Part shown: piece by piece, positions 135 to 60,557 of the stretch
Numbering within the stretch: position 1 is the first letter of the stretch
How the letters are laid out: each line of letters begins with the position of its first letter
Assembly (NCBI GenBank): GCA_020444065.1
Contig: JAHLLQ010000010.1
Span: 11,677-75,676, forward strand
DNA: 64,000 bases
Source of the DNA: a bacterium
GTDB lineage: Bacteria > Sumerlaeota > Sumerlaeia > SLMS01 > JAHLLQ01
Reading direction: 5' to 3'
Notes under the pieces: generated by a model
What the model saw: only the letters and a program-made list of their open reading frames with translations
Told to the model about the DNA's origin: nothing
Database searches by the model: none
Position numbers and translations under genes: made by a program

Positions 135-1175
135 TTGAGAGATTCTGAAGCCTGTCGAAGCCCCTCTCGCAAACGTCTTTTAGGGCTTGAAGCTCCTCGG
201 CGGCAGAAGCGATTGTTGAATTGTGGATGTACCATGAGACGCAATTATGACTGGGATGTTTGTGCGATGCTGGTTGACCAGTCACAAGGCATTGACAAGA
301 CACGGCTTGCAGCGATTTCCGCGCTATTCAGCGCGGGAGTTTTGCGCAGATTGATGCAGCCCAGCCCAAATGAAGGCCTTTGTCGGCTCGTCCAGCAATC
401 AGGCCTTTCCTCAGCGCTTGGACCCGATGCGCCTCTGGCCGATTTCCTCGAGGCGGCTCATAGAGTTCTTGAGAGGCCCGCCTATCGAAATGAATACACC
501 TACAAATCCGCTATCACACAGAAGCTGCTTCTGGGTCGCCACTCCTTGAAAACGGCTACTCTGTTGAGCGAGTTTCGAGTCCGAAATTCCGTGGCAGACC
601 TAGTAATATTGAATGGTACATCGACGGTCTACGAGATAAAATCTGAACGTGATTCCTTAGACAGATTGTCGGGACAGTTGAGAGATTACCAGGAGGTCTT
701 CGCCAACACCTACGTTGTCACCGGCCCCTCACGAAGAAATCAAGTGTTGGAATTGCTCCCCTGTGGCGTCGGACTCCTAATACTCACTGAAAGAGGCACC
801 CTCTCACGAGCGCGCGCTGCGATCTGCGGAGCAGCCAGCATCAATCCAAGGACTATCTTCGATTCCATCCGAACGCAAGAAGCAATGGAAGTGCTTCGAA
901 TGTGCGGGAGGCCGGTGCCTGATTTGCCAAATACGAGAATACGATCGGCGCTTGCAGAGGCCTTTACGGACATAGAGCCTATCGAATTGCATCGGGCTGT
1001 TGTTTCCGTTATGCGCAAGACGCGAAGTTCGGAGTCTCTGAGAGAGGTCCTCTCCCGCCTGCCTCGTTCCTTACATGCTTTCGCGCTTTCCGTGAGAATG
1101 CGTAGACAGGACAAGACGCGGCTACTCCAGGCAATGAAATTGCCGCTGAAGGAATATCTGAAGAGGAGACTGTAA
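135..1175 (+). CDS. PD-(D/E)xK nuclease-fold protein, sce7726-like; first gene of a 3-gene operon. True start may be ATG at 234 (gives ~314 aa)
   Basis: 346-aa ORF. Core motif VADLVILNGTSTVYEIKSERD fits D-x(n)-E-x-K of restriction-endonuclease-like fold. Stop overlaps next start (TAATG at 1173-1177). Region GC visibly lower than rest of window. Confidence 0.55.
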   Translation: MRDSEACRSPSRKRLLGLEAPRRQKRLLNCGCTMRRNYDWDVCAMLVDQSQGIDKTRLAAISALFSAGVLRRLMQPSPNEGLCRLVQQSGLSSALGPDAPLADFLEAAHRVLERPAYRNEYTYKSAITQKLLLGRHSLKTATLLSEFRVRNSVADLVILNGTSTVYEIKSERDSLDRLSGQLRDYQEVFANTYVVTGPSRRNQVLELLPCGVGLLILTERGTLSRARAAICGAASINPRTIFDSIRTQEAMEVLRMCGRPVPDLPNTRIRSALAEAFTDIEPIELHRAVVSVMRKTRSSESLREVLSRLPRSLHAFALSVRMRRQDKTRLLQAMKLPLKEYLKRRL

Positions 1176-2140
1176 TGGGTATCTACTACCCGTACTACCG
1201 AGGGAAGCAGTTCGAACTGAGCTCAATCCGCGAATGCGCCGAGATTATGGCCACCTGTGGATTCGTTCCCATTATCGAGCCCGTACGAGAATCCACCAGG
1301 GCGCTAGAGCGGACACTGCGAGCCGTTGCCGATTTTGGGGGACAAGCGATCGTTATCTTGAATCCAGTGCATGGGGAGCGAATGGATGATCAGGAATCCA
1401 CTCTTCGCCTCCTGCGTTCAATAGATACCAGAAGCGGTGGACTCGTGGTTTGTGGATTCCTGCTCACTGGCGACACGGCACTGGATCACATAGAGGAACT
1501 CGTTCGATCTGCACGTGATTTGCCAATCGCGTTTATTCACTATGGTTTTGGGTCTCCCATGGAGTTGTCAGGACTAATAAACAGAATCGCACCAGGCTCT
1601 ATTCAGATCTTCGAGGATCAGCATTGTGGAATGCTGTATCGGAGACATTTCCGAGACAAGGAAATCAGAGTTCTTCTGCATGATGGCTTCGTGAGGCGCC
1701 AGCGAAATAGCGATTATCCTCCAAGAGACTTCTTTTCAGAACTGCATCTTACATATCCCGACCAAGGAGCCACGGGCTTTGGGGACTTCTTGATCGTCGG
1801 AGATGAATACTCGGATGGCGGCGGGCCAGCCTATGCGGTGACAATTCACATTTCATACATTGACCGGACTCAGGAAGACCAGATGTATGTATCCCACTTC
1901 ATGTCTCATCGTCGGGATGACCCGACAGATCCGGCAGGGAAATTCGCCGAGGCCTTGCATGAGTTGATGTCTGAATTGGATAGACCCAATTGCCAAATCT
2001 ACGACACAGAAGCCATGAGAGAATTTCGAGACCTACACACAAGGGGCCACTTCCCCGGACTTGGTTATGTCAAGAAGCTCTCAATGAACCACCATGTCCA
2101 GACACTTGCCGGATTCTTTAGAGGGGGCACCACGCGATGA
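1175..2140 (+). CDS. T4 Beta_protein-family protein (sce7725-like), function unknown; second gene of operon
   Basis: 321-aa ORF. N-terminus MGIYYPYYRGKQFELSSIRE matches the characteristic Y-x-P-x-L/Y-K/R-x-K-x-G-E-x-x-A/S-L start of the Beta_protein/sce7725 family. ATGA overlap with downstream gene at 2137-2140. Confidence 0.6.
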   Translation: MGIYYPYYRGKQFELSSIRECAEIMATCGFVPIIEPVRESTRALERTLRAVADFGGQAIVILNPVHGERMDDQESTLRLLRSIDTRSGGLVVCGFLLTGDTALDHIEELVRSARDLPIAFIHYGFGSPMELSGLINRIAPGSIQIFEDQHCGMLYRRHFRDKEIRVLLHDGFVRRQRNSDYPPRDFFSELHLTYPDQGATGFGDFLIVGDEYSDGGGPAYAVTIHISYIDRTQEDQMYVSHFMSHRRDDPTDPAGKFAEALHELMSELDRPNCQIYDTEAMREFRDLHTRGHFPGLGYVKKLSMNHHVQTLAGFFRGGTTR

Positions 2141-3168
2141 AGTGCTGCCCAAATTGCATCGGGGACACTTGGATTGAGGAGGAGATGTCGTACATCTGGT
2201 CGGAGCAAATGGACAAATGCGACTACTGCGATAGAGAGAATGTCCGGGTTTTTGATCCCATTCTGATGCGGAATTGCTTTGAGTTGGTTCTTTCGGCCTA
2301 CCGGAAAGACAATGGCGGAAGACCGATTCTCGAACTGCTCATGGATGACTGGGCTCTGTTTCCCCAACTCCCACCCGATAGAGCGACGGCATTGCTCACC
2401 GAAGTCCTGGATGATCAAGCGATTGGGGTTGATACGTACATACCGCGGGATTCGTTCTCATCGAATAAGATTGAGGCGTGGGAAGAATTGAAGGTCGAAC
2501 TCAAACATAGAAATCGCTTCTTTCCAGCCTCTCGTATGGACCACGATAGGCTCCGGAATTTACTAGACTTTCTAATTCTGCAAGACAGTCATCCGTCACG
2601 AACATGGTTTCGCGCGCGGCTGCAGGCTGGTACTGCTGCCTACTCCGAGTCAGAGATGGGTGCACCACCAGAGGATACAGCATCGCATGGCCGTGCCAAT
2701 CCGGCGGGAATTCCATACCTTTATCTGGCTTCAGAACCCGAGACTGCGCTTTCTGAGATTCGTCCCCATGTGGGAGACTTGGCAACGGTTGCCAATGTGG
2801 CACTGAGAAAGAGACTCAAGATAGTCGATCTTCGTCATCCTCGGAAGACGGTTTCTCCACTCTCGGTGACAGATGAATCGGAGGTCGCGCAGTTGAGAGT
2901 GGATATCGGCTTTTTGGAGAAACTCGGAGAGGAATTATCACGGCCTGTCCTCCCGAATGTGGCTGCTATCGACTACATTCCTACGCAGTATCTCTGCGAG
3001 TTGATCAAGACGTTCCATTTCGATGGCGTGATGTATGCCAGTTCTGTTGGAGAAGGTGACAACTTAGCCCTTTTTGAGCCTGAAGCTGCTGTCTCGGAGA
3101 TCAACAATCCAAAGACATACCAAGTAATCCGCGTGTCCGTTGATGCATCGCCAGTCTCATCTTTGTAG
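2137..3168 (+). CDS. Zn-ribbon N-terminal domain (HEPN/RES-NTD1-like) fused to RES-domain toxin-like protein; third gene of operon
   Basis: 343 aa. N-terminal CPNC...CDYC zinc ribbon. RES hallmarks: HGRANPAGIPYLYLASEPETALSE (R..E), and YIPTQYL...FDGVMYASSVGEGDNLALFEP C-terminal block typical of RES (PF08808). Confidence 0.72.
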   Translation: MKCCPNCIGDTWIEEEMSYIWSEQMDKCDYCDRENVRVFDPILMRNCFELVLSAYRKDNGGRPILELLMDDWALFPQLPPDRATALLTEVLDDQAIGVDTYIPRDSFSSNKIEAWEELKVELKHRNRFFPASRMDHDRLRNLLDFLILQDSHPSRTWFRARLQAGTAAYSESEMGAPPEDTASHGRANPAGIPYLYLASEPETALSEIRPHVGDLATVANVALRKRLKIVDLRHPRKTVSPLSVTDESEVAQLRVDIGFLEKLGEELSRPVLPNVAAIDYIPTQYLCELIKTFHFDGVMYASSVGEGDNLALFEPEAAVSEINNPKTYQVIRVSVDASPVSSL

Positions 3169-4289: not shown

Positions 4290-4301
4290 GGGGGGGGGGG
4301 G
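4290..4301. repeat. G12 homopolymer tract in divergent promoter region between kinase-like gene and lpxD
   Basis: Sequence tgtgGGGGGGGGGGGGaggg read directly at 4290-4301. Confidence 0.9.
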
Positions 4302-4312
4302 AGGGAAAGTTA

Positions 4313-4351
4313 TTAGTGGCTAGTGATTAGTGACTAGTGGCTGGTGGCGAG
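4313..4351. repeat. Heptanucleotide tandem repeat (GTGGCTA/GTGATTA/GTGACTA...), ~5 units
   Basis: ttaGTGGCTAGTGATTAGTGACTAGTGGCTGGTGGCGAg. Same repeat family recurs at 5905, 53524 and 53698. Confidence 0.85.
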
Positions 4352-4449
4352 CGCGGGGGAGCTGGGGTTGTACGCTTCTGTTGACGGTCACCGGCGGGGG
4401 GCGGTTCTTTGGGGGCGCTGGATTTGAACTCTTCGCAGGTACGGATTCG

Positions 4450-5494: not shown

Positions 5495-5920
5495 ATGGAA
5501 GACTTTGTCGCGATTACGACGGGGACGCTGAGTCTGGATGCGGTGGTGGAAGCCATCGGGCACCAGGCGCTGGCGGAGGCTCCGCCTGGCTCGGACCGGG
5601 AGGCGGGTGCGCTGGTGACGTTTTCGGGCATCGTGCGCGAGACCGAAGGCGATCGGAAGATTCCAAGCCTGCAGTATGAGCACTATCCGCGCATGGCAGA
5701 GAAGGAAATGGGCCGTTTGGTGGAACGCGCGCGCGAGAAGTGGGAGCTGCGTCGCGTGGCGATGGTTCATCGCGTGGGAGAGGTCCCGGTGGGCGAGTCG
5801 TCGATTGTTGTGGCGGTGAGCGCCGGCCATCGTCCGGAAGCGTTCGAGGCTGCACGGTTCCTGATCGATGAGTTGAAGAAGAGTGTGCCGATTTGGAAGA
5901 AAGCACTGGCGAGTGATTAG
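5495..5920 (+). CDS. moaE: Molybdopterin synthase catalytic subunit
   Basis: 141 aa. Motifs TFSGIVRE..., MVHRVGEVPVGESSIVVAVSAGHRPEAFEAARFLIDELKKSVPIWKK typical of MoaE. Confidence 0.8.
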   Translation: MEDFVAITTGTLSLDAVVEAIGHQALAEAPPGSDREAGALVTFSGIVRETEGDRKIPSLQYEHYPRMAEKEMGRLVERAREKWELRRVAMVHRVGEVPVGESSIVVAVSAGHRPEAFEAARFLIDELKKSVPIWKKALASD

Positions 5921-5931
5921 TGGCTAGTGGC
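5905..5931. repeat. Heptanucleotide tandem repeat (GTGATTA GTGGCTA GTGGCGA) overlapping moaE stop
   Basis: ggcgaGTGATTAGTGGCTAGTGGCGAGTaagag; stop codon of moaE lies inside the repeat. Confidence 0.8.
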
Positions 5932-5966
5932 GAGTAAGAGCAGAAGAGTGCTGGTGGTGTTCTCTG

Positions 5967-19786: not shown

Positions 19787-19974
19787 GTTCGCCCCCTTCG
19801 GGGACGATTCAGAGCCAGCCAGTCTACCCCGAGTTCCCTGTCGGTCACTCGGGGTCATTCAGCTTGGCCGCCCTTCGGGCGACCGCATCCTGCGGGAGAT
19901 AGCCACGGATCTGTTTGGCAATCAAGCCGACGGGTTTCTGCGGGGGTTCAGGGCGCGAACGTTTCTTGGATAAA

Positions 19975-20215
19975 TCAAAGACTCTGGAGCTTGGGCAAGG
20001 ATCAGCCTTTGCCAAGGCTCCGGCGGACAAGGTGGAGCCGACGAGGCGCTCGCGAGGTGCTCGCTTGCCCTGGGCTGGTATGCTGAATCCCCCTTGGGGA
20101 TTCTTGGTCGCGCGTGGGCCAGGTTGATGGGTGGATGGAAGGAACGGAGAGGCGGCGTCACTGGGACTTGAGCAAGGATGCTCAGGTCACCTCAGTTCAC
20201 AAGCTCGCTTGCTGG
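19975..20215. repeat. Solo copy of the ~213-bp structured repeat family (see 24329-24912)
   Basis: ...gccctgggctggtatgctgaatcccccttggggattcttggtcgcg...cttgagcaaggatgctcaggtcacctc... aligns to the tandem unit at 24357-24569. Confidence 0.85.
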
Positions 20216-22743: not shown

Positions 22744-23736
22744 ATGAGCGCGATGGTCGTGTTCGTCTCGGTGGTGGCATCGGTGGTTCCGCTGACGGCG
22801 GTGCTGCTGGTGGTGTGGTGGCTGGATCGGTACGAGCGCGAGCCATTGTGGACGCTGGCGCTGGCGTTTGCGTGGGGGGCTTTCGGGGCGACGATGTTCT
22901 CGGCTCTGCTGGAGGTGATCCTGCAGGTGCCGGTGGCGTTCGTATTGGATGCGGAGCATCAGCAGTATTTTCTCGCGATTGTGGCGGCGCCGCCGATTGA
23001 GGAGTTCTTCAAGGGCCTGTTCATCGTCGGGCTGCTGTTCCTGGGGCGCTGGCTGGATAACCTGACGGACGGCGTGATCTACGGGGTTGCGGTGGGGCTG
23101 GGGTTCGCAATGGCGGAGAACTTCGCGTATTTCTTGCAGAGCTATGCAAGCGGCGGCGTGAGTGCATGGGTGACGGTGATCGTGTTTCGGACGCTGTTCA
23201 CGTCGGCGATGCACGCGGCGGCCACGGCGACTTTGGGTGCGTGCCTGGGGTTCGGCTGGCAACGGGCGATGCGGCCGGCTGGGATGGTCCTGCTGGCGCT
23301 GGGGGGCTATTCAGCGGCCGTCGTGATGCATTTCATCTGGAACAGCCTGGCAGTGTTGAGTGCGATGACGGAACACCTGGGGTTCAGTCTGATCGGCGCG
23401 ATGTTGATTGTGGGGGCGATTATCTTGTACCTGATCGTTCTGCAGGTGGCGTTGCATCACGAGCACAAGTTGCTGCTGCGGGAGTTGGAAGGCGAGGCGG
23501 CGCAAGGGTACTTCCCGGCGGAGCACGCGGCGGCCGTGGCGAGTTCGATCCGCCGGCGGCAGGACGATTGGCTGGATCCGCGAGTGGATCAGCATGCTTA
23601 TGTTGCGGTGGCGGTTCGGTTGGCCATGGCAAGAAGTCGGTGGAGATTCAGCCAGGGCCAGACTCGTGAGGAGTTAGCCTGGAGGATCAATGACTTGAGG
23701 AAGGAGCTGGCTAAGCTGCGCTACGACGTACTATAA
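22744..23736 (+). CDS. prsW: PrsW-family intramembrane metalloprotease (anti-sigma-factor protease-like)
   Basis: Polytopic. Signature EEFFKG, ENxxY (MAENFAYF) and HxxxN-like motifs. Confidence 0.75.
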   Translation: MSAMVVFVSVVASVVPLTAVLLVVWWLDRYEREPLWTLALAFAWGAFGATMFSALLEVILQVPVAFVLDAEHQQYFLAIVAAPPIEEFFKGLFIVGLLFLGRWLDNLTDGVIYGVAVGLGFAMAENFAYFLQSYASGGVSAWVTVIVFRTLFTSAMHAAATATLGACLGFGWQRAMRPAGMVLLALGGYSAAVVMHFIWNSLAVLSAMTEHLGFSLIGAMLIVGAIILYLIVLQVALHHEHKLLLRELEGEAAQGYFPAEHAAAVASSIRRRQDDWLDPRVDQHAYVAVAVRLAMARSRWRFSQGQTREELAWRINDLRKELAKLRYDVL

Positions 23737-23739
23737 GGT

Positions 23740-24260
23740 TTTTTAATGTTCTTCTTAAGAGAAAGCAGCAGTAGTACTAGGGCCTGTGAGAACAGGGGAG
23801 AACGCTTCAAGCGGCTGGATTTCTTCGAGTTAGATGGGGTTGCAGGTCTGGAAGAGCTGGGGACGGATTTGTGGGCGATTGTGAAAAGATAGTCGATGGC
23901 GCGCGCGTGTCCGAATTCACAGCCTTGTAGCAGTGGAAAGCCTGTGAAAAGTCCATCTGGGAAGAAAATCGAATATTAAGATTTGATTAACCTGGGGTTA
24001 CGGAATATTTGGGGGTGGGTTTCAACGGTACTCCGCGGATGAGCTTTTCCACAGAACTTATCCACAGGTGGGACAGTGCGAATCCGCGATTCATGATTTC
24101 ATGTAAGATCAATTTTTTCAATATTCTAAAGTGTTGTAACGTTATTTATATCCGTTCATAAATCGCGAGTAATTCACAGGGCCTGTGGATAACTTTTGTG
24201 CGAAAAAGTTTACGTTAATTGAGTCACTTTGGCGCGGCGATCTTTCGAGTAGTCTCATAA
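23740..24260. other. AT-rich intergenic island with DnaA-box cluster and DUE-like stretch: putative oriC (or strongly DnaA-regulated region)
   Basis: Perfect DnaA boxes TTTTCCACA 24045-24053, TTATCCACA 24058-24066, TGTGGATAA (rc) 24184-24192. 1-mismatch boxes near 23881, 23941, 24172. AT-rich run caattttttcaatattctaaagtgttgtaacgttatttatatccgttcataaatcg 24110-24165. Confidence 0.55.
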
Positions 24261-24328
24261 TTCGTGGGGGGTTGGGAGATGGGGGTGTTGCACGCCTTCA
24301 GCGTGCGGGGTCTGGGGACCTATGGACC

Positions 24329-24912
24329 CAGGGCGGCGCTCGCGAGGTGCTCGCTTGCCCTGGGCTGGTATGTTGAATCCCCGTTGGGGATTCTTGGTCG
24401 CGGGTGGGCGAGGTCGGCGGGTGGGTGGAAGGGACGGAGGGGCGGCGTCACTGGGGCTTGAGCAAGGATGCTCAAGTCACCTCAAGAAGACGTTGTTGCA
24501 GCCTTCCACTTTCGCCAAGGCTGCGGCGGACAAGGTGGAGCCGACGAGGCGCTCGCCAAGGGCTCGCCTGCCCTGGGCTGGTATGTTGAATCCCCGTTGG
24601 GGATTCTTGGTCGCGGGTGGGCGAGGTCGGCGGGTGGGTGGAAGGGACGGAGGGGCGGCGTCACTGGGGCTTGAGCAAGGATGCTCAAGTCACCTCAAGA
24701 AGACGTTGTTGCAGCCTTCCACTTTCGCCAAGGCTGCGGCGGACAAGGTGGAGCCGACGAGGCGCTCGCCAAGGGCTCGCCTGCCCTGGGCTGGTATGTT
24801 GAATCCCCGTTGGGGATTCTTGGTCGCGGGTGGGCGAGGTCGGCGGGTGGGTGGAAGGGATGGGGTGGGCGACGTCACTGGGGCTTGAGCAAGGATGCTC
24901 AAGTCACCTCAA
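24329..24912. repeat. Tandem array (~2.7 copies) of a 213-bp structured repeat; unit starts at 24357, 24570, 24783
   Basis: Exact 213-nt periodicity read directly. Each unit has hairpin A GAATCCCC-gtt-GGGGATTC and hairpin B TTGAGCA-agga-TGCTCAA followed by GTCACCTCAAG. Confidence 0.9.
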
Positions 24913-24935
24913 GAAGCTAGTTCGCGGGGCCTCAA

Positions 24936-27182
24936 TCAGGAGTCGATCTTCTTGAGGCGGGAGAAGTTGAGGGTGATTTCCTGGCTTCGGCCGTCGTCGA
25001 ATTCGACGTAGACTTTGGAGGCGCTGAAGCCGGCGGAGACTTCGGTGATGGTGCCGGGGCCGAGGACTGGATCTTCGACGCGATCGCCGACGTTGAAGCC
25101 GGCACGGCGGGTCTGCTTCGCGCGGCGCATGCCGGAGAGGGGCGAGACGGAGCTGCTGGCGGGGGAGCGGCGCGCCCAGGAGGAAGCGCTCGGGCGGCTG
25201 GAGTAGCCGCTGTATCGGCTGCGTCCGGAGAGGCCGAGGGTTTCCTGGCCGAGCTGGTCGAGGACTTCCTGCGGGAGCTCGCGCAGGAAGACGGATGGTT
25301 CGGTGTAATCCCATTGGCCGTAGGTCATGCGGCGTTCGGCGCGGGAGAGGTAAACGCGCCGGCGCGCGCGGGTGAGCGCGACGTAAAAGAGGCGGCGTTC
25401 TTCTTCGAATTGTTCCGGGTTATCGACGGTGCGGCTGTTGGGAAAGACGCCCTGGTCGAGGGCAACGATGAAGACGTAGTCGAACTCGAGGCCCTTTGCG
25501 TTGTGGACGGTCATGAGACTGACTTTGGGCGAGTCGTCGCGTTCTTCGCGTTGGGAATCGAGCGCCATGGTCTCGAGGAAGAACGCGAGGGAGTGGTCGG
25601 CGTATTCGGCCTCGAATTCGGAAACGACCGTTTCGAGTTCGTCGATGTTCTCGAGTCGCGCTGCGCCATCGAGGGATTCCGGATCGCCGACGCCCTGCTT
25701 TCGATAGTCCGTGTCTTCGAGGATCGCCTTCAAGATCTTCGATGTCGGTTCCTCGGCTGCCATGACGTGCCACTTCTTTACATCGGCAAGGAATTTCTCG
25801 AGCCCTTTACGGGCTTTACCTTTAAAGGCGTCTTCGGCGAGAAGTTGACGGGCGGCTTCGAATTGGCTGCAGCTCCGGAAAACGGCGCGCGAGGCGATAT
25901 CGGAGAAGGACTTTGCACCAATTCCACGCGTCGGAACGTTGACAATGCGTTGGAATGCAAGGTCGTTGGTTGGTTGATCGGCCAGGCGAAGGAAAGAGAG
26001 GAGATCCTTGATTTCGCGCCGTTCATAAAACCGCATTCCGCCGATGATGCGATAAGGAACCTTGGCGCGGATGAAGGCATCTTCAAATGGGCGCGAGATG
26101 CGATGGCTGCGATAGAAGATGGCGACATCCTCGGGGTTCGCATCCTGGGCGTAGAGGAGGGTTGAGATGCTCTTCGCAACCTGCTCGGCCTCTTCGCGAT
26201 CGTCCGTACCGCTGATTGTGTAGAATGGATCGCCAAGTTCCTTTTCGGTCCAGAGTTTCTTACCGATGCGCATCGAGTTGTTTTCGATGACGGCGCCGGC
26301 GCCTTTCAGAATGTTTCCAGCAGACCGATAATTCTGTTCCAGGCGGATGAGTTTTGTATCTGGGAATTCCTTCTGGAATCCAAGGAGATTGGAAACATCC
26401 GCGCCACGCCAGGAGTAGATCGACTGATCTTCGTCGCCCACGACGCAGATGTGATGATGGTCCTGGACGAGGAGTTTTACCAATTCGAACTGGCTGTAGT
26501 TAGTATCCTGGAATTCATCGATCAGGACATAGCGGTACTTGTCGGCCCAGCGTTTCCGAACTTCTTCGTGTTCGCGGAACAGGCGCACGCAACGGAAGAT
26601 GAGATCTTCGAAATCGAGCGCGTTATTATCATTCAACACGCGGTCGTAGTGTTCGTAGATTTCGGCGTAGGGAATCTCCGACGAGTCGAACTCCTCGCGG
26701 CACTCGGTCGGGGTCAGGAGTTTCATTTTGGCGAGTGTGATAAAGTGGAGCGCCTGGCCCGGTTTGACGCGCTTTGGGTCGATGTCGCAGGCCTCCATGG
26801 CTTTCTTCACGGCGGTCTGCTGGTCGTGCTCGTCGAGAATTGCAAAGTTCCGTTCGAGGCCTGCCGATGCGGCTTCGCGGCGCAGGATGGCAGCACAGCG
26901 GCTATGGAATGTCGAAATAGCCAGGGAGGGGTCGTCCGGGACACTCAGCAAATAGCAAATCCGCGAACGCATTTCTCGCGCGGCCTTGTTCGTGAATGTG
27001 ACGGCGAGAATTTGCCACAGCGGAATACCCACCACATGCGAAAGGTACGCAATGCGGTGGGTAATGACGCGGGTCTTTCCGCTGCCTGCGCCGGCGATGA
27101 CCATGAGCGGGGTGCCATGGTGCGTGACGGCTTCCTGCTGCTGCGGGTTCAGGTTTGCAAGGATTTGCTGTTCCAGATCCAT
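24936..27182 (-). CDS. uvrD: ATP-dependent DNA helicase UvrD/PcrA (superfamily 1A)
   Basis: 748 aa. Walker A GAGSGKT, helicase motifs, C-terminal Tudor-like tail. Start ATG overlaps upstream stop (ATGA). Confidence 0.9.
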   Translation of the reverse strand: MDLEQQILANLNPQQQEAVTHHGTPLMVIAGAGSGKTRVITHRIAYLSHVVGIPLWQILAVTFTNKAAREMRSRICYLLSVPDDPSLAISTFHSRCAAILRREAASAGLERNFAILDEHDQQTAVKKAMEACDIDPKRVKPGQALHFITLAKMKLLTPTECREEFDSSEIPYAEIYEHYDRVLNDNNALDFEDLIFRCVRLFREHEEVRKRWADKYRYVLIDEFQDTNYSQFELVKLLVQDHHHICVVGDEDQSIYSWRGADVSNLLGFQKEFPDTKLIRLEQNYRSAGNILKGAGAVIENNSMRIGKKLWTEKELGDPFYTISGTDDREEAEQVAKSISTLLYAQDANPEDVAIFYRSHRISRPFEDAFIRAKVPYRIIGGMRFYERREIKDLLSFLRLADQPTNDLAFQRIVNVPTRGIGAKSFSDIASRAVFRSCSQFEAARQLLAEDAFKGKARKGLEKFLADVKKWHVMAAEEPTSKILKAILEDTDYRKQGVGDPESLDGAARLENIDELETVVSEFEAEYADHSLAFFLETMALDSQREERDDSPKVSLMTVHNAKGLEFDYVFIVALDQGVFPNSRTVDNPEQFEEERRLFYVALTRARRRVYLSRAERRMTYGQWDYTEPSVFLRELPQEVLDQLGQETLGLSGRSRYSGYSSRPSASSWARRSPASSSVSPLSGMRRAKQTRRAGFNVGDRVEDPVLGPGTITEVSAGFSASKVYVEFDDGRSQEITLNFSRLKKIDS

Positions 27183-53300: not shown

Positions 53301-53542
53301 TGGATGAGGCGTCGACGGGTGTGCTCGGGTTCCGCAGCGACGATGGGATCGAGGCGTGGCTGAACGGCGAGCGGATTCACTATCACGACGTCCATCGCGG
53401 CGCGGGTCACGAGTGGGAACTGGTGCCGGTGACGCTGAAGGAAGGCGCGAATGTGCTGCTGCTGAAGATCAGCCAGGGGAATGGGAATTGGGAGTTCAGT
53501 GTGCTGACGAAGGGAAGTGAAGAGAGAGTGGCTAGTGATTAG
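50392..53542 (+). CDS. Secreted GH31-family alpha-glycosidase (alpha-glucosidase/alpha-xylosidase-like) with C-terminal beta-sandwich domains
   Basis: Signal peptide. GVDFWWLDWQQ (nucleophile region) and FWSHDIGGH (acid/base region). Confidence 0.8.
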
Positions 53543-53577
53543 TGGCTAGTGGTGAGTGGCGAGTGATTAGTGGCGAT
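53524..53577. repeat. Heptanucleotide tandem repeat (GTGGCTA GTGATTA GTGGCTA GTGGTGA GTGGCGA GTGATTA GTGGCGA) overlapping GH31 stop
   Basis: Read directly; 7 units. Confidence 0.85.
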
Positions 53578-53619
53578 CCGCCTTCGCCAAGGCTTCGGCG
53601 GACTTGCGGTGGCCAGTTG

Positions 53620-53690
53620 GTGTGTTGGGCGCAGGACGAGGTTTGTGGGAACGCTCTTGGACAAGGATGTCCAAGTCACCTCGAGGGAGA
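53620..53690. repeat. Partial copy of structured repeat family: hairpin TTGGACA-agga-TGTCCAA + GTCACCTCGAGG
   Basis: cgctcTTGGACAaggaTGTCCAAgtcacctcgaggg; stem differs from other copies by compensatory changes. Confidence 0.75.
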
Positions 53691-53697
53691 GAAAGAA

Positions 53698-53733
53698 GTG
53701 GCGAGTGGCGAGTGGCTAGTGGCGAGTAGGGAG
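53698..53733. repeat. Heptanucleotide tandem repeat (GTGGCGA x2, GTGGCTA, GTGGCGA)
   Basis: aaGTGGCGAGTGGCGAGTGGCTAGTGGCGAGtaggg. Confidence 0.85.
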
Positions 53734-53781
53734 AGGGCCTGTCGTCGCGCTATCTTTTGGTCCCGTTTGTCCTCTTGAGTC

Positions 53782-54168
53782 CTAGACAACGCCGCCGCCG
53801 GGGGAGTCTTCGTCTCGGATGAGGAGGAGGATGGCGGACTGGGAGACGACGAGGAAGTCTTCATCCTGGTAGCGGACTTCGACGGCTTCTTTGCGGAGGA
53901 AGAGGGCGTAGTCGCCGACTTCAGCCTGGACGGGGATGTAGCGAACGGGTGAGTCGCGGCGTTCCTGCCAGGGCTCTGAGGATTCGCTGGAGAAGTTGGG
54001 CATGGCGATGCCGGGACCAGTTTCAACGATGCGGCCGGACTGGACGGGCTCTTTGTCGATGACGCTCTGGGGCAGGTAGAGACCGACCTTGGTGCGTTCG
54101 GTGCCGGTGTCGGGTTTGATGAGCAGGCGGTCGCCAACCATCAGGATGTGTTTGTTTCCGATTTGCAT
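53782..54168 (-). CDS. GroES/Cpn10-family co-chaperonin-like protein with internal insertion (orphan, no groEL adjacent)
   Basis: HILMVGDRLLIKPDTGTERTKVGLYLPQSVIDKEPVQSGRIVETGPG matches the Cpn10 core. Extra ~30 aa before the C-terminal strand. Confidence 0.55.
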   Translation of the reverse strand: MQIGNKHILMVGDRLLIKPDTGTERTKVGLYLPQSVIDKEPVQSGRIVETGPGIAMPNFSSESSEPWQERRDSPVRYIPVQAEVGDYALFLRKEAVEVRYQDEDFLVVSQSAILLLIRDEDSPGGGVV

Positions 54169-54263
54169 GATCCCCGCAGATTCCATTCAAGCTGGCAGGA
54201 TGTAGCCCTGAGGGCGCGGGTGCCGTCAAGAGGGACGCGCGTGGATGCCGTGCGGGATAGACG

Positions 54264-54334
54264 CGCAAGCGCTTGAATAGAGATGCTCAATAGAGCGTGA
54301 ATGCGGTTGACAATTGCAATCAAAGCGCTTACGC
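54264..54334. promoter_or_regulatory. Two weaker LacI-type operator-like palindromes (cgCAAGCGCTTGaat; atCAAAGCGCTTACgc) upstream of or overlapping the annotated 5' end of paralog C
   Basis: Both share the AAGCGCTT core of the 41885/41985/42431 sites. Confidence 0.4.
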
Positions 54335-56611
54335 AGACAATCGGACAGTGGTGCGGATGATGGGAGAATTGCGGTGGCGCAGACAACTTTGAGACGGCTT
54401 CGATCGGCAATCGTGGGACTGGCGCTTGTGGCGCTTGCACCGGTGGCCATGGCGCGGACAGCGACGGTGTATTTGCGCTACGACAATTCGGATTCGAAGG
54501 CGCCGTATCCCCAGATGTTTGCGGCGGGTTCGTGGGACGAATCGGGGGCGTTCGACGATACCTGGAGCGGGTTCGAGCGGTTTGCGCTGTCCGACGATGG
54601 GCTGCACGGCGACGAGGCGGCAGGGGATGGAATCTGGGGCGGCGTGGCCGAGGTGCAGGCCGGAACAGGCGCGACGTTCATGTTTGCAGCGGACTGCGAC
54701 CAGTGCGGCGATAACGGGTGGATCGGGATCGGCCAGACGTTCGAGGTTCCGGACGATGTGGCGGCGATGGCCGTGGATTTCCACCTCGGCATTCTGTGGA
54801 TGCGGACGATGGGGTCGGTGGGCTGGATGATGGTGGGGTCGCCGTCGAAGGATGCGGTGCGCGGTGAATACGATCGGCCATTGCATCCTGTTTGCATTCC
54901 CTGCGCGGGAACGCACCCGACGGGGTTGGCGATCGCGCGCCTGATTCCGTGGCAGACGAAGGTGTCGCAATCGGAAACGGGGCGCATGCAGGTGGAGTTG
55001 AACAGCGCGGCTCGAATCAATCCCGGCGACGAGGTTCGGCTGGAGTTGTACTCGGTGGAGGGTGCGCTGCAGCGGCAGTATCAGAAGACGGCGGCGGCGC
55101 TGGTGACATTCGACATCGAGCCCTGTCTGCTGGAAGGCGGGTATCACTGCATCGCGACGATTGTGAACGGCGACAACGAGTACGATCGCGCGGATCGGGT
55201 GTACTCGGTCGTGAACGACATGTGGAACGATGTGCGGTATGGGTTCTACACGAACTTCGGCAGCGTCGGCGGAGACTATGTAAAGAAGACGGATATTCTC
55301 GTCGATTTGTATATTAACGCGATCGAGTACTACGACTACTTCCCGGCGCACGGAGTCTATGCGCCGACCGAGTTGATCTATAACGCGGAACCGTTCGGGG
55401 GGACGATCTATCTGCAGGACGTACTCAATAAGATGTCGGAGGCGAGGGAGAAGAACATTCTCAACATCGCGTACATCGCGGCCTACGCCGGTGCGCCGGA
55501 TCTGGTGAATTCGATTTCAAATTCCCATCTAACGAACTCGGCGGGGAACTGGCTGGCGTTCTACGGCGGCGAGGTTGGGATCGATTTCGAGTTGGACGGT
55601 CTTTGGTACTACCTGACGGCGTTTGCGCCGGATACTCCGTGGCGGACGTATTTGTGGGAGGAGTTGACGAGGACGCTGCAGGACAACGAAGGCGACTATG
55701 TTGCTTTCGATGGGTTTGAAATCGATACGTATGGATACACCGGAGATTACTATTCGGCGGGGAGTGCGTATAATGGGACGCCGATGAATACGATGCTGCC
55801 GCAGTTCGCGGCGGACGTGCGGGACCTGGTTCATTCGGTTAAGTCGTACGGCATGACGACGATGAATAACCTGGCGGAGCAGAATATCCTGCAGATGTTT
55901 GACAAGGTGGATTTTCTGTTTGTCGAAAACTGGAAATGGCACAAACCGAACTACCACCAGGTTGTCGAAATGGTGTACTACAACAGTAAGGAAAGCCGGC
56001 AACGGTTTGTTTCGAAGTCCTATCCCGCAGATACCGAAATGAATGTTACGGCGTGGCCCGCGGAGAACTTGCGCTATCTGATGGGCTCGCACCTGGCGGG
56101 AGGTGGAAGTTTCATGGTTGCCGGCGAGCCGCGGGAGTCGACCGGTCAGATCGGCGGGCTGAATTCTCTCTACTATCCGGACAACCAGCCGCAGAGCGAA
56201 GAGAATTACAGCATCATTCGGAATTACAATAAACACGACGCGGCACTGTATCGATACACGCATGGGAAGAACGTCGCGCGGCCGGGGAACGACCTGGCAA
56301 TTCCGGATTGCATGATCTATAAGACTCGGCCGGAGGACAGCAATTCGTACGTGTGGAACATCCTGCACAATAAGGACAATTGGCTGTGGGCGGTGCAGAA
56401 TAGCGATCCGGGCGTGATCGAGATTTATGAAATCACTTACGCGATGCCGGCGGGAGAGGCTCCCGAGGCGGTCTATTGGGGGACGCCGGATAACGACTGG
56501 ATGGTGTATCCGGTGGCGCTTGATTGGGAGTTTGAAAATGGGAATCTGCGGTTTGCGATTCCGGAGTTGCATTACTACGGGACGCTGATTGTGAAGTTCA
56601 GCCGACTGTAA
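54314..56611 (+). CDS. Secreted multidomain carbohydrate-active protein, paralog C of 32435-34984 (CBM-like N-domain + GH66-like TIM barrel)
   Basis: Signal peptide (LVALAPVAMA). SGFERFALSDDGLHGDEAAGDGIWGG. NDVRYGFYTNFG...YINAIEYYDYFPAHGVYAPTE aligns with paralog A. AFDGFEIDTYG and LFVENW. Track start is TTG 54314; GTG at ~54371 is more plausible. Confidence 0.5.
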   Translation: MQSKRLRRQSDSGADDGRIAVAQTTLRRLRSAIVGLALVALAPVAMARTATVYLRYDNSDSKAPYPQMFAAGSWDESGAFDDTWSGFERFALSDDGLHGDEAAGDGIWGGVAEVQAGTGATFMFAADCDQCGDNGWIGIGQTFEVPDDVAAMAVDFHLGILWMRTMGSVGWMMVGSPSKDAVRGEYDRPLHPVCIPCAGTHPTGLAIARLIPWQTKVSQSETGRMQVELNSAARINPGDEVRLELYSVEGALQRQYQKTAAALVTFDIEPCLLEGGYHCIATIVNGDNEYDRADRVYSVVNDMWNDVRYGFYTNFGSVGGDYVKKTDILVDLYINAIEYYDYFPAHGVYAPTELIYNAEPFGGTIYLQDVLNKMSEAREKNILNIAYIAAYAGAPDLVNSISNSHLTNSAGNWLAFYGGEVGIDFELDGLWYYLTAFAPDTPWRTYLWEELTRTLQDNEGDYVAFDGFEIDTYGYTGDYYSAGSAYNGTPMNTMLPQFAADVRDLVHSVKSYGMTTMNNLAEQNILQMFDKVDFLFVENWKWHKPNYHQVVEMVYYNSKESRQRFVSKSYPADTEMNVTAWPAENLRYLMGSHLAGGGSFMVAGEPRESTGQIGGLNSLYYPDNQPQSEENYSIIRNYNKHDAALYRYTHGKNVARPGNDLAIPDCMIYKTRPEDSNSYVWNILHNKDNWLWAVQNSDPGVIEIYEITYAMPAGEAPEAVYWGTPDNDWMVYPVALDWEFENGNLRFAIPELHYYGTLIVKFSRL

Positions 56612-56622
56612 ATCGAAAGAAT

Positions 56623-56663
56623 CCGGCTCGGGGAGGACGGCCCTTTGGGGAACCCCGAGCCGG
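56623..56663. terminator. Bidirectional terminator hairpin
   Basis: CCGGCTCGGGG-(19 nt loop)-CCCCGAGCCGG perfect 11-bp stem between convergent genes. Confidence 0.65.
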
Positions 56664-56725
56664 ATCTCCAGCGTCCGGCATCGATTGGGGAAAACGGGAA
56701 CCTCCCCCAGAGATGCCGGACTCTT

Positions 56726-57832
56726 TTATGCAGCGGCCTCAAATTCGTTTGTGAACCAGCGGCGGCGCAGCCAGAAGGATACGCTGACGAGCATGATCAG
56801 AACGGGGACCTCGACAAGCGGGCCGATGACGGCGGCGAAGGCGGCTCCTGACCCAATTCCAAAGACGGCGATGGCCACGGCAATCGCCAATTCAAAGTTG
56901 TTGCTGGCGGCGGTGAAGGAGAGCGTCGCGCTGCGCGAGTAATCGGCGCCCATCTTCCAGCCGAGGAAAAAGCTGACCAGAAACATGACGACGAAGTAGA
57001 TCAAAAGCGGAATGGCAATTCGCAAGACGTCGATTGGCAATTCCACGATCTGGTTTCCCTTCAGGCTGAACATAACAACGATCGTGAAGAGAAGCGCGAT
57101 GAGCGTGAGCGGGCTGATAAGGGGGATGAATTTGTGTTCGTACCAATCGCGGCCTTTTGCCTTGAGCATCAGGAATCGTGCGGCGATGCCGGCGAAGAAT
57201 GGAATGCCGAGGTAGATCAGTACGCTGGTCGCGATCTGGGCGATTGTAATTTCAACGACCGCGCCTTCGAGGCCGAACTGCGGCAGAAGCCACGTGATGA
57301 AGAACCACGCGTAGAGGCTGTAGAAGAGGACCTGGAAGACGCTGTTGAATGCAACCAGCCCGGCGCAGTATTCGGTGTTTCCTTTCGCGAGGTCGTTCCA
57401 GACGATGACCATCGCGATGCAACGGGCCAGTCCGATCATGATCAGTCCGACCATGTACTCCGGATAGCCGCGCAGGAAGATGACGGCGAGGGCGAACATC
57501 AGGATCGGCCCGATGACCCAATTCTGCAGAAGAGAAAGCCCGAGTATTTTCCAATCGCGAAAGACTTCACCGAGTTCTTCGTAACGCACCTTCGCCAGCG
57601 GCGGGTACATCATCAGGATCAGGCCGATTGCGATCGGGATGTTCGTTGTTCCGACGCTGACGGAATCGAGAAGTTTCTCGATCCGTGGGACGAAGTGCCC
57701 AAGCGCGACGCCCGCGGCCATCGCAATGAAGATCCACAACGTGAGGAATCGATCGAGGAAGGCAAGCCGCCCCCGGGCGTTCGTCGGCGAACACCCGGCG
57801 GCGCACGAGGAACCGTCTTCGATAGGACTCAT
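56726..57832 (-). CDS. acr3: Arsenite efflux transporter, ACR3 family
   Basis: 369 aa polytopic. Close match to the Acr3 family along full length ([16 protein letters not shown]...MYPPLAKV...). Start at ATG 57832. Confidence 0.85.
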
Positions 57833-57834
57833 TT

Positions 57835-58713
57835 TCAGCAATCTCCGCCACAGCAGCAAGGCTTGGGTTTCACGGCGCTGATGTTCATGCTCGCGATATA
57901 GTCGGCGAGGGTTTCGCCTTCGGCAATGAGGGAGTTCACGCGCGATGCGATGTGGTCTTTGGTTTCTTCCATTGCCTGGATGTAGCCGGGCTTCTCTTCG
58001 AGTTGTAAATCGACGAGTCCGGCTTCGGAAATGACGGCTTTGAGTTCGTCGACTAGGAGCGCGCCCGCGACGCAACCGACGAGTGCCTGCGCGTCGTTTC
58101 GGATGGCCTCGGGGAGCGGCTTCTTCAGCACGATGTCGCTAACAGCGATGCGACCGCCGGGACGGAGGACACGCGCGATTTCGCGATACACGCTGTGTTT
58201 GTCGGGCGAGAGGTTGATCACGCAATTGCTGATGACGACGTCGGCCGTGTTGTCGGGAAGGGGAAGGGCTTCGATTTCGCCGAGACGGAATTCGACATTA
58301 TTCAGGCCGGAGCGTTCGCGATACTTGGCGACGTTCGCGCGGGCCTTGGAGAGCATCTCGGGCGTCATGTCGATGCCGATGGCGCGGCCGGCTGCGCCGA
58401 CTTTGCGACCGGCAATGAAGATGTCGAATCCGCCACCAGAGCCGAGGTCGACGACGACTTCGCCTTCGCTCAGGCTGGCGAGCGCGACGGGATTGCCACA
58501 GGACAGACCCATGTTGGCGCCTTCGGGCAGGTTCGCGAGTTCTTCCTGGCTGTAGCCGACCGTGGCGGCGAGCTGCTCGGCCGTGTCGACCTGGCCGCCG
58601 CAGCAGGTGGGGCCGCAGCAACTGTCGGAGTCTGCGGTGGCGACTTTCGCGTAGCCGGCGCGAACGGTGTTTCGGATTTCTTCCTGGCGAGCCAGGTCAT
58701 CGTGGTTGGTCAT
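57835..58713 (-). CDS. arsM: Arsenite S-adenosylmethionine methyltransferase
   Basis: SAM motif [11 protein letters not shown]. Conserved Cys pairs (CCGPTCC, C-terminal CCCGGDC). Confidence 0.85.
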
Positions 58714-59177
58714 GTTGGCGTTCCTTTCAATTCAAGCAGTTCGCTCGGGAGTGTTTCGATGAATGTCCGTATTTGATCGCGCACGGTGCGATAGCATTCG
58801 AGCGCGGCGTCTTCGGTTTCAGCGGCGGCGGCGAGTTTCGGCGGATCGTCGAAGCCGCGGTGCACGACGCGGGTGCGTCCCGGGAATCGGGGGCAGTTTT
58901 CGTCGGCGTGTCCGCAAACGGTGACGACGACGTCGAACTCGACGCCGCGATCAAGGAGGGACTGGAGCGTCTTCGATTCCTGGCCGGTGATGTCGATGCC
59001 CGCCTCGGCCATGACGCGGATCGCGCTGGGGTTCTGGCCGTGGGCGACGATGCCGGCGCTGAAGGGCTCGACGGTGTCGCCGATCAGATGGCGCGCCCAG
59101 CCTTCGGCCATTTGGCTTCGGCAGGAGTTTCCGGTGCACAGGAACAGCACCTTTGGCCTTGAGCTTGTCGTGCGCAT
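58710..59177 (-). CDS. arsC: Arsenate reductase, low-molecular-weight phosphatase family
   Basis: P-loop KVLFLCTGNSCRSQMAEG. C-terminal half of a long spurious track ORF; start at ATG 59177. Confidence 0.85.
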   Translation of the reverse strand: MRTTSSRPKVLFLCTGNSCRSQMAEGWARHLIGDTVEPFSAGIVAHGQNPSAIRVMAEAGIDITGQESKTLQSLLDRGVEFDVVVTVCGHADENCPRFPGRTRVVHRGFDDPPKLAAAAETEDAALECYRTVRDQIRTFIETLPSELLELKGTPT

Positions 59178-59515
59178 AATTCCTCCGGTGAGAGGGCGAG
59201 GATTTGGGCCAGCGCCTGGCTGTCCTGGTCGATTTCGGGCTGGTCGGCCATGGCGGCCAGGGCCCATTCGAGCGCGCCGCGGGCGGCGGCGTCGGTGGCG
59301 GCGATGCGATAGTACGCCCAGCGGCCGTCCTTGCGGACGTCGACCAGACCGGCGGCGGCAAGCTGGGAGAGGTGCTTGGAAGTGGTGGACGGGGCGAGCT
59401 GGAGGAGCTCGTAAAGCTGGCAGACGCAGAGTTCGCCGCGCTCGGCCAGGGCATGGACGATGCGGAGGCGATTGCGGTCGGCGAGTGCTTTCGTGATGGC
59501 GAGGACTTGTCGCAT
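59084..59515 (-). CDS. arsR: ArsR/SmtB-family metalloregulator
   Basis: wHTH LADRNRLRIVHALAERGELCVCQLYELLQLAPSTTSKHLSQLAAAGLV. 3' end overlaps arsC start by ~94 nt in another frame. Confidence 0.75.
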   Translation of the reverse strand: MRQVLAITKALADRNRLRIVHALAERGELCVCQLYELLQLAPSTTSKHLSQLAAAGLVDVRKDGRWAYYRIAATDAAARGALEWALAAMADQPEIDQDSQALAQILALSPEELCARQAQGQRCCSCAPETPAEAKWPKAGRAI

Positions 59516-59531
59516 GGCTTGCCTTTCGTTG

Positions 59532-59549
59532 TTTCGCCAAATAGCGAAA
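59532..59549. promoter_or_regulatory. Imperfect inverted repeat TTTCGCcaaatagCGAAA, candidate ArsR operator
   Basis: Located 17-34 nt upstream of arsR start codon. Confidence 0.4.
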
Positions 59550-59599
59550 TGGAAGGTGGGGGGGAATGCAAGGGGAAAATGGGGGGGGCGAACTCGTAC

Positions 59600-60060
59600 T
59601 CAGCGGAGCGGCACTCGATCTCGTACTCGGCTTTGCGGGTGTTCGAGTACGAGAGCGAGTACGAGTACGTGTACGACGTGAAGCCGGCGGTCCCCGGTGT
59701 TGGAGTGCTCTTGAGGTGGCTTGAGCATCCTTGCTCAAGCGCCAGGGGTGGTGGTGGGTGCGCGGTGGTTGCGGGCGCCCCATCCGGGACGTGGGGGAGA
59801 AGGGGATCGGTGGGTCGCGCCGATAGCGCTCGGCAACGGGGCGCGGGAACCCAGGGCTTGCGCCCTGGGCTGGTATAGGGCGGGGCGTTGCCCCTTTGCG
59901 GGGGGAGTGAAGTGTTGGTGGGGTGGCGGGCTGCGCGGGGGCTTGGCCAGGGATGGCCAAGTCACCTCGAGGTGCTGGCGTTCCCGTACTCGGCTTTGGG
60001 GAGAGATCGAGTGTGAGTGCGAGTGCGAGTGCGAGTACGAGTACGAGGTGAAGCTGGGGC
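59600..60060. repeat. Composite repeat region: hexamer microsatellites (CGAGTA/GAGTGC)n at 59625-59678 and 59991-60046 flanking two copies of the structured hairpin element (one in reverse orientation)
   Basis: 59705-59745 gaggtggCTTGAGCAtcctTGCTCAAG (rc of hairpin B). 59860-59900 gccctgggctggtat + GGGGC-gtt-GCCCC. 59925-59965 TTGGCCA-ggga-TGGCCAA gtcacctcgagg. 59991-60046 gagtgtgagtgcgagtgcgagtgcgagtacgagtacgag. Confidence 0.8.
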
Positions 60061-60194
60061 GGCGGGTGTGATGCCGGCCGGAAGCCGGCGGTCCCATCCG
60101 CCTTCGCTCTGCGAGCTTCGGCGGACAAGGGAGCGCGGGTGGCCCGGATTTTGAGTGCCACGCAGACAACTGGTGCCTTGAGGAGGCTCTGCGC

Positions 60195-60446: not shown

Positions 60447-60557
60447 GCGAGCAGCGACCGGCGATGAGAATCGCCGGTTTTTTCGTTCCCGGTTGCCCGC
60501 GGCGAGTTTCTGGTGTGATATCTGGGTTGGCTTTTGGATTTGTGAGAAGGGAGCGCC

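Follow-up and report, generated by a model that had tools for sequence, protein, structure and literature searches.

A mosaic of separable hairpin modules with an Acido-Lenti-1-related core in the intergenic DNA of a Sumerlaeota bacterium

A tandem array of 213-nucleotide (nt) units and a set of dispersed relatives occur in a 64,000-nt stretch of the genome of an uncultured Sumerlaeota bacterium (GCA_020444065.1, contig JAHLLQ010000010.1, positions 11,677 to 75,676; hereafter the window). We find that these sequences are a mosaic of separable hairpin modules that occur independently of one another, and not a fixed two-hairpin element. Their core is a member or a derivative of the Rfam family Acido-Lenti-1 (RF01687), and the repeat family is a variant of a catalogued motif and no new class. 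It is intergenic, usually at the 3' ends of genes, its hairpins are kept through compensatory change, its array is a very recent tandem duplication, and its turnover between relatives is fast. The reading that we favor, with a probability of about one half, is that the array and its relatives form a lineage-specific, non-coding extragenic hairpin mosaic in 3' intergenic zones that resembles the repetitive extragenic palindromic (REP) sequences, bacterial interspersed mosaic elements (BIMEs), and BOX elements.

Results

Four modules were distinguished: H0 (GCCAAGGCTNCGGCGGAC); an Acido-Lenti-1-type core made up of the stem P1, the linker CTGGTAT, and the stem P2, which is hairpin A; a G-rich spacer of about 45 to 63 nt; and hairpin B, which has a stem of 8 to 10 bp, an (A/G)GGA loop, and the tail G(T/C)CACCTC (GTCACCTC). 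In every copy, H0 (...GCCAAGGCTNCGGCGGACAAGG) could pair with the segment adjoining it. The order of the modules varies between loci. The 20-kb copy runs H0, core (with a degenerate P1), spacer, and hairpin B, while the array opens with a half-motif, core, spacer, and hairpin B and continues with two rounds of H0, core, spacer, and hairpin B. The 53.6-kb copy consists of H0, spacer, and hairpin B only, and the composite at 59.7 to 60.1 kb runs from an inverted hairpin B through a G-rich stretch, the canonical core, spacer, hairpin B, and a hexamer block to H0. The layout that a preliminary description of this DNA had assigned to all copies is thus not general, since the 53.6-kb copy lacks both GCCCTGGGCTGGTAT and hairpin A. 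The inverted copy reported there does lie on the minus strand (59719-59740) but is a hairpin B alone and not the full layout, and the tail said to be common reads GTCACCTCAGT at 20 kb.

The copies themselves, at about 20.0, 53.6, and 59.7 to 60.0 kb, were recovered where they had been described, through matches to GCCCTGGGCTGGTAT and to the hairpin B pattern. This 15-mer has exact matches at 20067, 24357, 24570, 24783, and 59862, and with up to 3 mismatches it gave 6 matches against 1.1 expected, a number reached in none of 100 shuffles. The pattern of hairpin B plus tail, GGATGNNCARGTCACCTC, was found 7 times in the window (1.1 expected), and a DNA pattern search for H0 gave 4 matches (0.31 expected). 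Outside the array, H0 lies at 20000-20035 and 53578-53610, with a variant at 60098-60133.

The identity of the core was established from the copy at 59.8 kb, which reached 44.7 bits against RF01687 (gathering cutoff, 37; E = 7e-7) and 45.9 bits against R1, a covariance model built from the 47 published seed sequences only, which avoids circularity, and run over the window with filters off. This was the only Rfam match at gathering level in the window, where no covariance model of a self-cleaving ribozyme, riboswitch, or group II intron reached that level. The Acido-Lenti-1 architecture that we looked for has a P1 of 8 bp closed by a small loop, then a linker of some 12 nt (GGCU..UAU), then a P2 of 5 bp whose loop is 3 nt long, and finally a U, and the 59.8-kb copy fits it exactly. 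The array units likewise keep P1, the linker GGCU...UAU (here CUGGUAUGUU), and a P2 with a 3-nt loop (UCCCC-GUU-GGGGA) followed by U. In unit 1, P1 is formed by CCCAGGGC (24327-24334) and GCCCTGGG over a 22-nt loop insert (GCGAG-GTG-CTCGC) and is followed by the linker CTGGTATGTT and hairpin A, GAATCCCC-GTT-GGGGATTC (24375-24393); in units 2 and 3, P1 reads CCAAGGGC-TCGCCT-GCCCTGGG, with a 6-nt loop and one mismatch (7 of 8 pairs). What sets the array units apart from the published family is this loop insert or mismatch in P1, the extension of P2 to 8 bp, and their scores of 12 to 13 bits. R1 ranked the canonical copy and its palindromic reverse first and the array units third to fifth in the window, in the correct register, and it matched the half-motif at 24288-24304 (model positions 29-45; 8 bits), 22 nt before P1. 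It did not detect the 20-kb copy, in which P1 is largely lost while hairpin A (20085-20103) and hairpin B (20165-20188) are present, and Rfam itself gave no match at E <= 10 between 19900 and 25000, the array units and the 20-kb copy lying below the cutoff. The array units are degenerate derivatives of Acido-Lenti-1, not members by score. The element of the preliminary description therefore coincides in part with a known family, its GCCCTGGGCTGGTAT and hairpin A being the 3' half of P1, the linker, and P2 of Acido-Lenti-1; hairpin B and H0, to which the motif is fused here, are both outside the Rfam model. Table 1 lists the coordinates.

Table 1. Modules and copies of the repeat family in the window
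Feature	Position	Strand	Evidence or remarks
Tandem array, 2.7 units of 213 nt	24335-24916	+	Tandem Repeats Finder (TRF), repeat search, unit identities
Half-motif, P2-like hairpin GCACGC-CTTCA-GCGTGC	24288-24306	+	20 nt before P1 of unit 1
Acido-Lenti-1-like core, unit 1	24327-24393	+	R1 cmsearch, 13.3 bits (rank 3 in window); fold
Acido-Lenti-1-like core, unit 2	24556-24606	+	R1 cmsearch, 12.2 bits; hairpin A at 24588-24606
Acido-Lenti-1-like core, unit 3	24769-24819	+	R1 cmsearch, 12.2 bits
Hairpin B GGCTTGAGCA-AGGA-TGCTCAAGTC, tail GTCACCTCAAG	24455-24486	+	Further copies at 24668-24699 and 24882-24913
H0 (GCAGCCTT...AAGGCTGCGGCGGACAAGG) between array cores	24496-24545	+	Further array copy at 24709-24758
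Dispersed full-length copy	19986-20199	+	nhmmer E = 2e-43; 82% identical to array unit
P2-like hairpin CGCCCC-CTTC-GGGGACG	19790-19806	+	3 nt past UbiA stop; R1 match at 19793-19803
Partial element: H0, G-rich spacer, hairpin B (53656-53675), and tail	53578-53686	+	No Acido-Lenti core
Canonical Acido-Lenti-1 motif	59850-59895	+	P1 CCCAGGGC-TTGC-GCCCTGGG, linker CTGGTATAGGGC, P2 GGGGC-GTT-GCCCC
Hairpin B variant GGCTTGGCCA-GGGA-TGGCCAAGTC, tail GTCACCTCGAG	59940-59971	+	45 nt past end of Acido-Lenti-1 motif
Solo inverted hairpin B GCTTGAGCA-AGGA-TGCTCAAGC, tail CACCTCAAG	59709-59745	-	Upstream of arsR (start 59515, -)

The exact 213-nt periodicity described for the array is confirmed by TRF, which gave a period of 213 with 2.7 copies and 97% matches at 24335-24916. 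In the register starting at 24357, the first two units (24357-24569 and 24570-24782) are identical at 213 of 213 positions and the third is 98% identical, and the complete identity of units 1 and 2 shows that the duplication is very recent. The copy number of the array is uncertain, as 100%-identical units of 213 nt were assembled here in a metagenome-assembled genome (MAG) from short reads; a Logan contig of the same organism terminates within the array.

The hairpins are conserved as structures. Across seven different versions of hairpin B, both partners change in 3 of 10 pairs and 92.9% of the cells are paired; the covariation score was reached in 0 of 500 shuffles, and pairing falls to 20 to 39% when the partner columns are slid. 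The stems TTGAGCA, TTGGACA, and TTGGCCA and the (A/G)GGA loop are as first described, and the earlier proposal of a selected secondary structure agrees with the covariation of hairpin B, which extends to an orthologous site in a relative. For hairpin A, the two reported forms are both present, but they represent the wholesale replacement of a stem between two lineages and not covariation of columns. MAFFT could not align them, and the stem swap, while structure preserving, amounts to a single event. Local hairpins have z scores of -3 to -6 and are stable on both strands, hairpin B folding at -17.8 kcal/mol on the plus strand (z = -4.1) and -14.1 kcal/mol on the minus strand and P1 with hairpin A at about -37 kcal/mol on either. 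It is possible that they form at the level of DNA. Unit 2 as a whole takes the form of a long rod when folded (-114.9 kcal/mol and z = -5.2 on the plus strand; z = -3.0 on the minus strand), which we rejected as a feature of the family since the corresponding z scores are -1.6 at 20 kb and -1.0 at 59.8 kb. A G-quadruplex motif seen by eye in the G-rich spacer of the array unit has no counterpart in the 20-kb copy and was dropped.

We also considered whether the wobble pairs reveal the acting strand. Hairpin B has five, each of them G.T when read on the plus strand, but that strand is strongly G and T rich, which alone favors this outcome (by our estimate about 1.7:1, or p ~0.1 for 5:0), and in the published seeds the noncanonical cells on the annotated strand are 23 A.C versus 6 G.U. 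The wobble argument was rejected because of this confounding bias and the contradiction by the seeds, and the wobble pairs do not identify the acting strand. The A.C excess, together with the convergent downstream genes, may mean that the strand given in Rfam is wrong or that the structure acts in DNA.

The main rival to an extragenic repeat is that the units are genes for trans-acting small RNAs (sRNAs), of which the array would hold three tandem copies, with the anti-Shine-Dalgarno-like tail (G)UCACCUC available to pair with ribosome-binding sites. UCACCUC matches 7 nt of the usual 3' end of 16S rRNA, which speaks for this view, as do Rfam's own label for Acido-Lenti-1, the covariation of hairpin B with its conserved loop and tail, the better fold of the array unit on the plus strand (z = -5.2 versus -3.0), and the five plus-strand G.T wobbles. 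We nevertheless consider it unlikely. Promoter-like sites were found neither ahead of the units nor within them, no terminator follows them, the long rod is not conserved in the 20-kb and 59-kb copies, and the modules separate and vary in order. The wobble bias is what the excess of G over C and T over A on this strand predicts, and it is opposite in the published seeds. Neither about 32 kb of the closest relative nor about 78 kb of other Sumerlaeia DNA holds an Acido-Lenti-type core, and three other orthologous sites are free of modules.

The loop of hairpin B raises a related idea, that it is a site for a CsrA/RsmA-type protein, of the kind that binds GGA in hairpin loops, and the array a sponge RNA like CsrB or RsmZ. 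As in those RNAs, (A/G)GGA is presented in a loop closed by C-A...U-G, and the context C-A-(A/G)-G-G-A-U-G is invariant in 7 of 7 window copies while the stem covaries; this context resembles the CANGGANG core of the CsrA/RsmE consensus. AAGG is enriched in the unit (5 versus 1.7 expected; p = 0.008), but GGA is not (7 versus 5.7 expected; p = 0.3). Unlike CsrB and RsmZ, the array presents one loop GGA per 213 nt, the copy in the closest relative reads CGAGGACG, and no csrA turned up in the roughly 200 kb of Sumerlaeia DNA searched, a weak negative. No paper linking CsrA to the Sumerlaeota was found. Taken together, this makes a CsrA sponge quite improbable.

The positions of the copies point to gene ends. 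Two loci directly adjoin stop codons of genes that converge on them, and at three a gene running in the same direction lies upstream. The 20-kb copy lies tail to tail between the stops of UbiA (19786, +) and a Mur ligase (20222, -). The array is placed at the tail-to-tail junction of PrsW (22744-23736, +), which is followed by a region of DnaA boxes, and uvrD (stop 24936-24938, -), its last hairpin B ending 22 nt short of the uvrD stop codon. The 53.6-kb copy begins about 35 nt past the stop of a GH31 gene and splits an (AGTGRYN)n heptamer array into two parts (53521-53577 and 53697-53741); because it divides this array, it looks like an insertion. The 59.8-kb composite lies between arsR (-) and a small plus-strand gene. 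Direct repeats of about 80 to 100 nt (59589-59695 and 59979-60097) flank the 59.7- to 59.97-kb composite, each comprising a hairpin of (CGAGTR)n and its complement followed by GAAGCCGGCGGTCCC, and they could stem from the duplication of a segment or from an insertion that landed in a block of repeats. A 61-codon open reading frame (ORF) on the minus strand (19845-20030) starts inside the 20-kb H0 and runs toward UbiA, and its C-terminal half does not look low in complexity.

Homologues of UvrD and GH31 assign the window to Candidatus Sumerlaeota (formerly BRC1). Comparison with the closest relative available, a syntenic ENA MAG (SLMS01) whose UvrD is 81% identical, shows how fast the family turns over. 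In its locus L010, the gap between uvrD and PrsW is 553 nt (1200 nt in the window) and retains the DnaA boxes with no array, while the gap between UbiA and the Mur ligase is 71 nt (436 nt in the window), with a solo hairpin B, CTTGAGCG-AGGA-CGTTCAAG, as its only module; this hairpin abuts the Mur ligase stop and carries a compensatory change from A-T to G-C. In its locus L020, no module was found after GH31 or upstream of arsR, so that 3 of 4 orthologous sites lack any module. The family thus expanded in the lineage of the window, and the hairpin B at the Mur ligase is older and was retained. That two genomes have kept it points to some function there, whatever its nature.

Wider searches returned little. 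The DNA of the closest relative (about 32 kb checked) and of other Sumerlaeia loci (about 78 kb) gave no Acido-Lenti-type core, and in Rfam the latter matched only a TPP riboswitch. An exact scan of 185,579 GTDB species genomes with CCTGGGCTGGTAT-N80-110-GTCACCTC gave 8 matches, which is the chance level; none had an Rfam match, and the one inspected (L006) was coding sequence. The exact hairpin B pattern was absent from viral contigs and occurred twice in JGI metagenomes, both times in the same coding sequence with noncomplementary arms. A blastn search of phage and plasmid collections with the array found nothing.

The array had been described as lying next to a putative replication origin, and as part of one it could contain iterons or act as an accessory element. 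A cluster of DnaA boxes at 24045-24192, with two exact TTATCCACA boxes and one near-exact box, lies about 140 nt upstream of the array and is conserved in the relative. DnaA-box-like sequences extend over 23760-24200 (9240-9720 in L010) and comprise TTTTCCACA at 24045, TTATCCACA at 24058 and 24184 (-), and several xTTCACAGG variants. The GC skew, however, is +0.05 to +0.29 in every 2-kb bin of the 64 kb, with no change of sign and with genes on both strands, so that it stays positive on both sides of the cluster, and the proposed origin is not supported. The relative keeps the boxes without the array, copies of the element lie at three other loci, and no dnaA or dnaN is nearby. An origin function for the array is accordingly very improbable, and the boxes may instead be a DnaA-titrating or regulatory site.

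We attach least weight of all to the possibility that the array encodes a repetitive protein, either through the ORF at 24322-24888 (+) or through a 70-codon ORF in each unit on the minus strand. The unit length is 3 x 71 and keeps the frame across units, the plus frame is open for 188 codons, and the minus strand of the unit reads GAGGTGAC-TTG...TGA, which resembles a ribosome-binding site, start, and stop. A search of 5.8 billion proteins, however, gave no homologue of the array ORF, which is best regarded as an artifact, as had been suspected. Its translation is of low complexity and rich in Arg, Gly, and Pro, and indels separate the related copies, in which hairpins and not codons are conserved. 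The strong and uniform GC skew produces many long spurious ORFs in this window, such as those at 58710-60944 and 62452-63660.

Other repeats and variable segments were noted in the window. Plus-strand heptamers (AGTGGCG / AGTGATT / AGTGGCT)n occur at 4308-4364, 5898-5940, 53521-53578, and 53697-53741; they lie at gene boundaries, carry TAG and TGA stops, and resemble the short tandemly repeated repetitive (STRR) heptamers of cyanobacteria. A G12 run (4290-4301) precedes the first of them and a G8 run (59581-59588) precedes the hexamer blocks, and these runs could be slippage-prone or phase-variable tracts. Logan contigs L018 and L019 both stop at the G12 run or a short way before it. In the relative, GH31 is followed directly by an ars operon (ACR3, ArsM, ArsC, and ArsR; L020, 5672-8675), and in the window (53543-62400) a GH66 gene (54314-56611) stands between GH31 and the ars genes. 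A block of small genes of lower GC content follows arsR (60195-62388). Both the GH66 gene and this block look like lineage-specific insertions. A RES-domain gene (2137-3168) and its upstream partner (1175-3168 together) look like a toxin-antitoxin pair; other genes lie downstream of the RES-domain gene in L019 (sample SRR14069923), which points to strain-level variation.

Discussion

Our results are consistent with the array and its relatives being a hairpin mosaic of the REP, BIME, or BOX kind that is confined to one lineage. Its modules would spread by insertion and, through slippage or unequal recombination, give rise to arrays and to the neighboring microsatellites, and hairpins in single-stranded DNA would favor both processes. 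Once in place, the modules may be tolerated or retained because their stem-loops are transcribed into the 3' ends of the flanking genes, where they could terminate or insulate tail-to-tail genes or protect transcripts from 3' exonucleases. The array would encode no protein. Canonical hairpins with a T run are not enriched as terminators near the loci (6 versus 10.4 expected), which makes plain stem-loops plausible as 3'-end signals in this genome.

Several points weigh against this interpretation. The RNA-level role of the hairpins is one that we infer, and none of the hairpins is followed by a U run. The canonical 59.8-kb copy lies in a divergent promoter region and not at gene 3' ends, and no transposase, REP-associated tyrosine transposase (RAYT), or reverse transcriptase is present in the window. 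With about 7 hairpin B copies and 5 core copies, several of them recent duplicates, the covariation statistics are thin, and the intergenic sequence of the relative has diverged beyond alignment, which leaves insertion boundaries and target-site duplications undefined.

The preliminary description had offered a REP-like element or a miniature inverted-repeat transposable element (MITE) as one explanation. The former fits best of what was suggested, whereas the latter finds no terminal inverted repeats or target-site duplications to build on. In alignments and folds, one end of the unit is not the inverted repeat of the other, no target-site duplication is visible flanking the 20-kb copy, and the 53.6- and 59.8-kb copies are flanked by blocks of simple repeats and not by short duplications. 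With the REP, BIME, and REPIN-RAYT systems of enterobacteria and Pseudomonas, the family shares 20- to 40-nt extragenic palindromes in mosaic combinations, a preference for 3' intergenic DNA, stems kept by compensatory change, and a presence that varies among relatives. REP sequences are numerous genome-wide; for hairpin B, the count in the 64-kb window is 7. The family differs in that its units are longer (about 130 to 213 nt), its copies are mostly direct and not inverted pairs, and no RAYT is found in the window. BOX elements of Streptococcus pneumoniae (boxA-boxB(n)-boxC) are modular non-coding repeats whose internal module is repeated in tandem in variable number; they are predicted to form stable stem-loops, have no transposase of their own, and show terminal inverted similarity. 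The family described here lacks such terminal similarity and has no sequence relation to BOX.

A RAYT-type Y1 transposase with the motifs HVHVL and YIHNNP does occur next to uvrD in another Sumerlaeia genome (L016, 1-910; L017, 25-44), and it is flanked by REPs of its own, CGACGAAT-CGGA-GTTCGTCG-CCCCCAGGG with an 8-bp stem, including one inverted REPIN-like pair. A tblastn search with this protein found nothing in the window. We therefore rejected a direct link: the mechanism exists in the phylum, but the REP hairpin of L016 is unrelated in sequence and the window has no RAYT.

The closest parallels to the window come from Acido-Lenti-1 itself. The motif was described from 89 sequences, mostly of Lentisphaera araneosa and Koribacter, some of them near group II introns (Weinberg et al. 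2010, PMC2864571). Rfam types it as 'Gene; sRNA', and a 2026 preprint still counts its function as little known. The supplementary alignments of PMC2864571 contain features that the paper itself does not discuss. There, copies from Lentisphaera araneosa are arranged in plain tandem, separated by near-identical spacers, with periods of 74, 110, 115, and about 192 to 200 nt; a half-motif stands in front of the arrays, which are located between an upstream stop and a convergent downstream stop. A G9 run comes before one such array and (AACUCAA)n comes after another, and a metagenome copy whose P1 is close to that of the window is followed by (GGGGUCA)2 and a G6 run. Multiple copies, tandem organization, and intergenic placement by stop codons are thus found in the window as well as among the published copies, and the likeness includes the half-motif, the location between gene ends, 6- to 7-nt microsatellites, and G runs. 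The combination of half-motif, tandem array, microsatellite, and G run is seen in Lentisphaera, in two metagenome contigs of the seed alignment (prefix ABEF), and in the Sumerlaeota genome. Hairpin B and H0 were not seen in the Lentisphaera flanks that we read. The original description drew on Acidobacteria and Lentisphaerae, and single copies from Rhodopirellula and Geobacter are included in the seed alignment; the Sumerlaeota are a new phylum for Acido-Lenti-1.

It is tempting to ask whether all Acido-Lenti-1-type cassettes share one undescribed mechanism, either a mobile element driven by single-stranded DNA or reverse transcriptase or a dedicated system for termination or insulation between tail-to-tail genes. 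A mobile element would fit both the published proximity to group II introns and the fact that all full copies here lie on the plus strand (the lagging-strand template). Hairpin B with its UCACCUC tail might in addition imitate the 3' end of 16S rRNA or serve as a decoy for a protein. We regard this whole reading as improbable, however.

In conclusion, the array and its relatives extend Acido-Lenti-1, listed since 2010 as an 'sRNA', to a further phylum. In practice, such arrays disrupt short-read assemblies and yield spurious ORFs in MAGs. In this genome, Acido-Lenti-1 is a module of a mosaic extragenic repeat with quick turnover and not a conserved gene, and it has recurring companions in the form of half-motifs, tandem arrays, microsatellites, G runs, and placement at convergent stops. 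These companions and the excess of A.C pairs in the seeds suggest that the sRNA label and the strand assigned to Acido-Lenti-1 merit re-examination.

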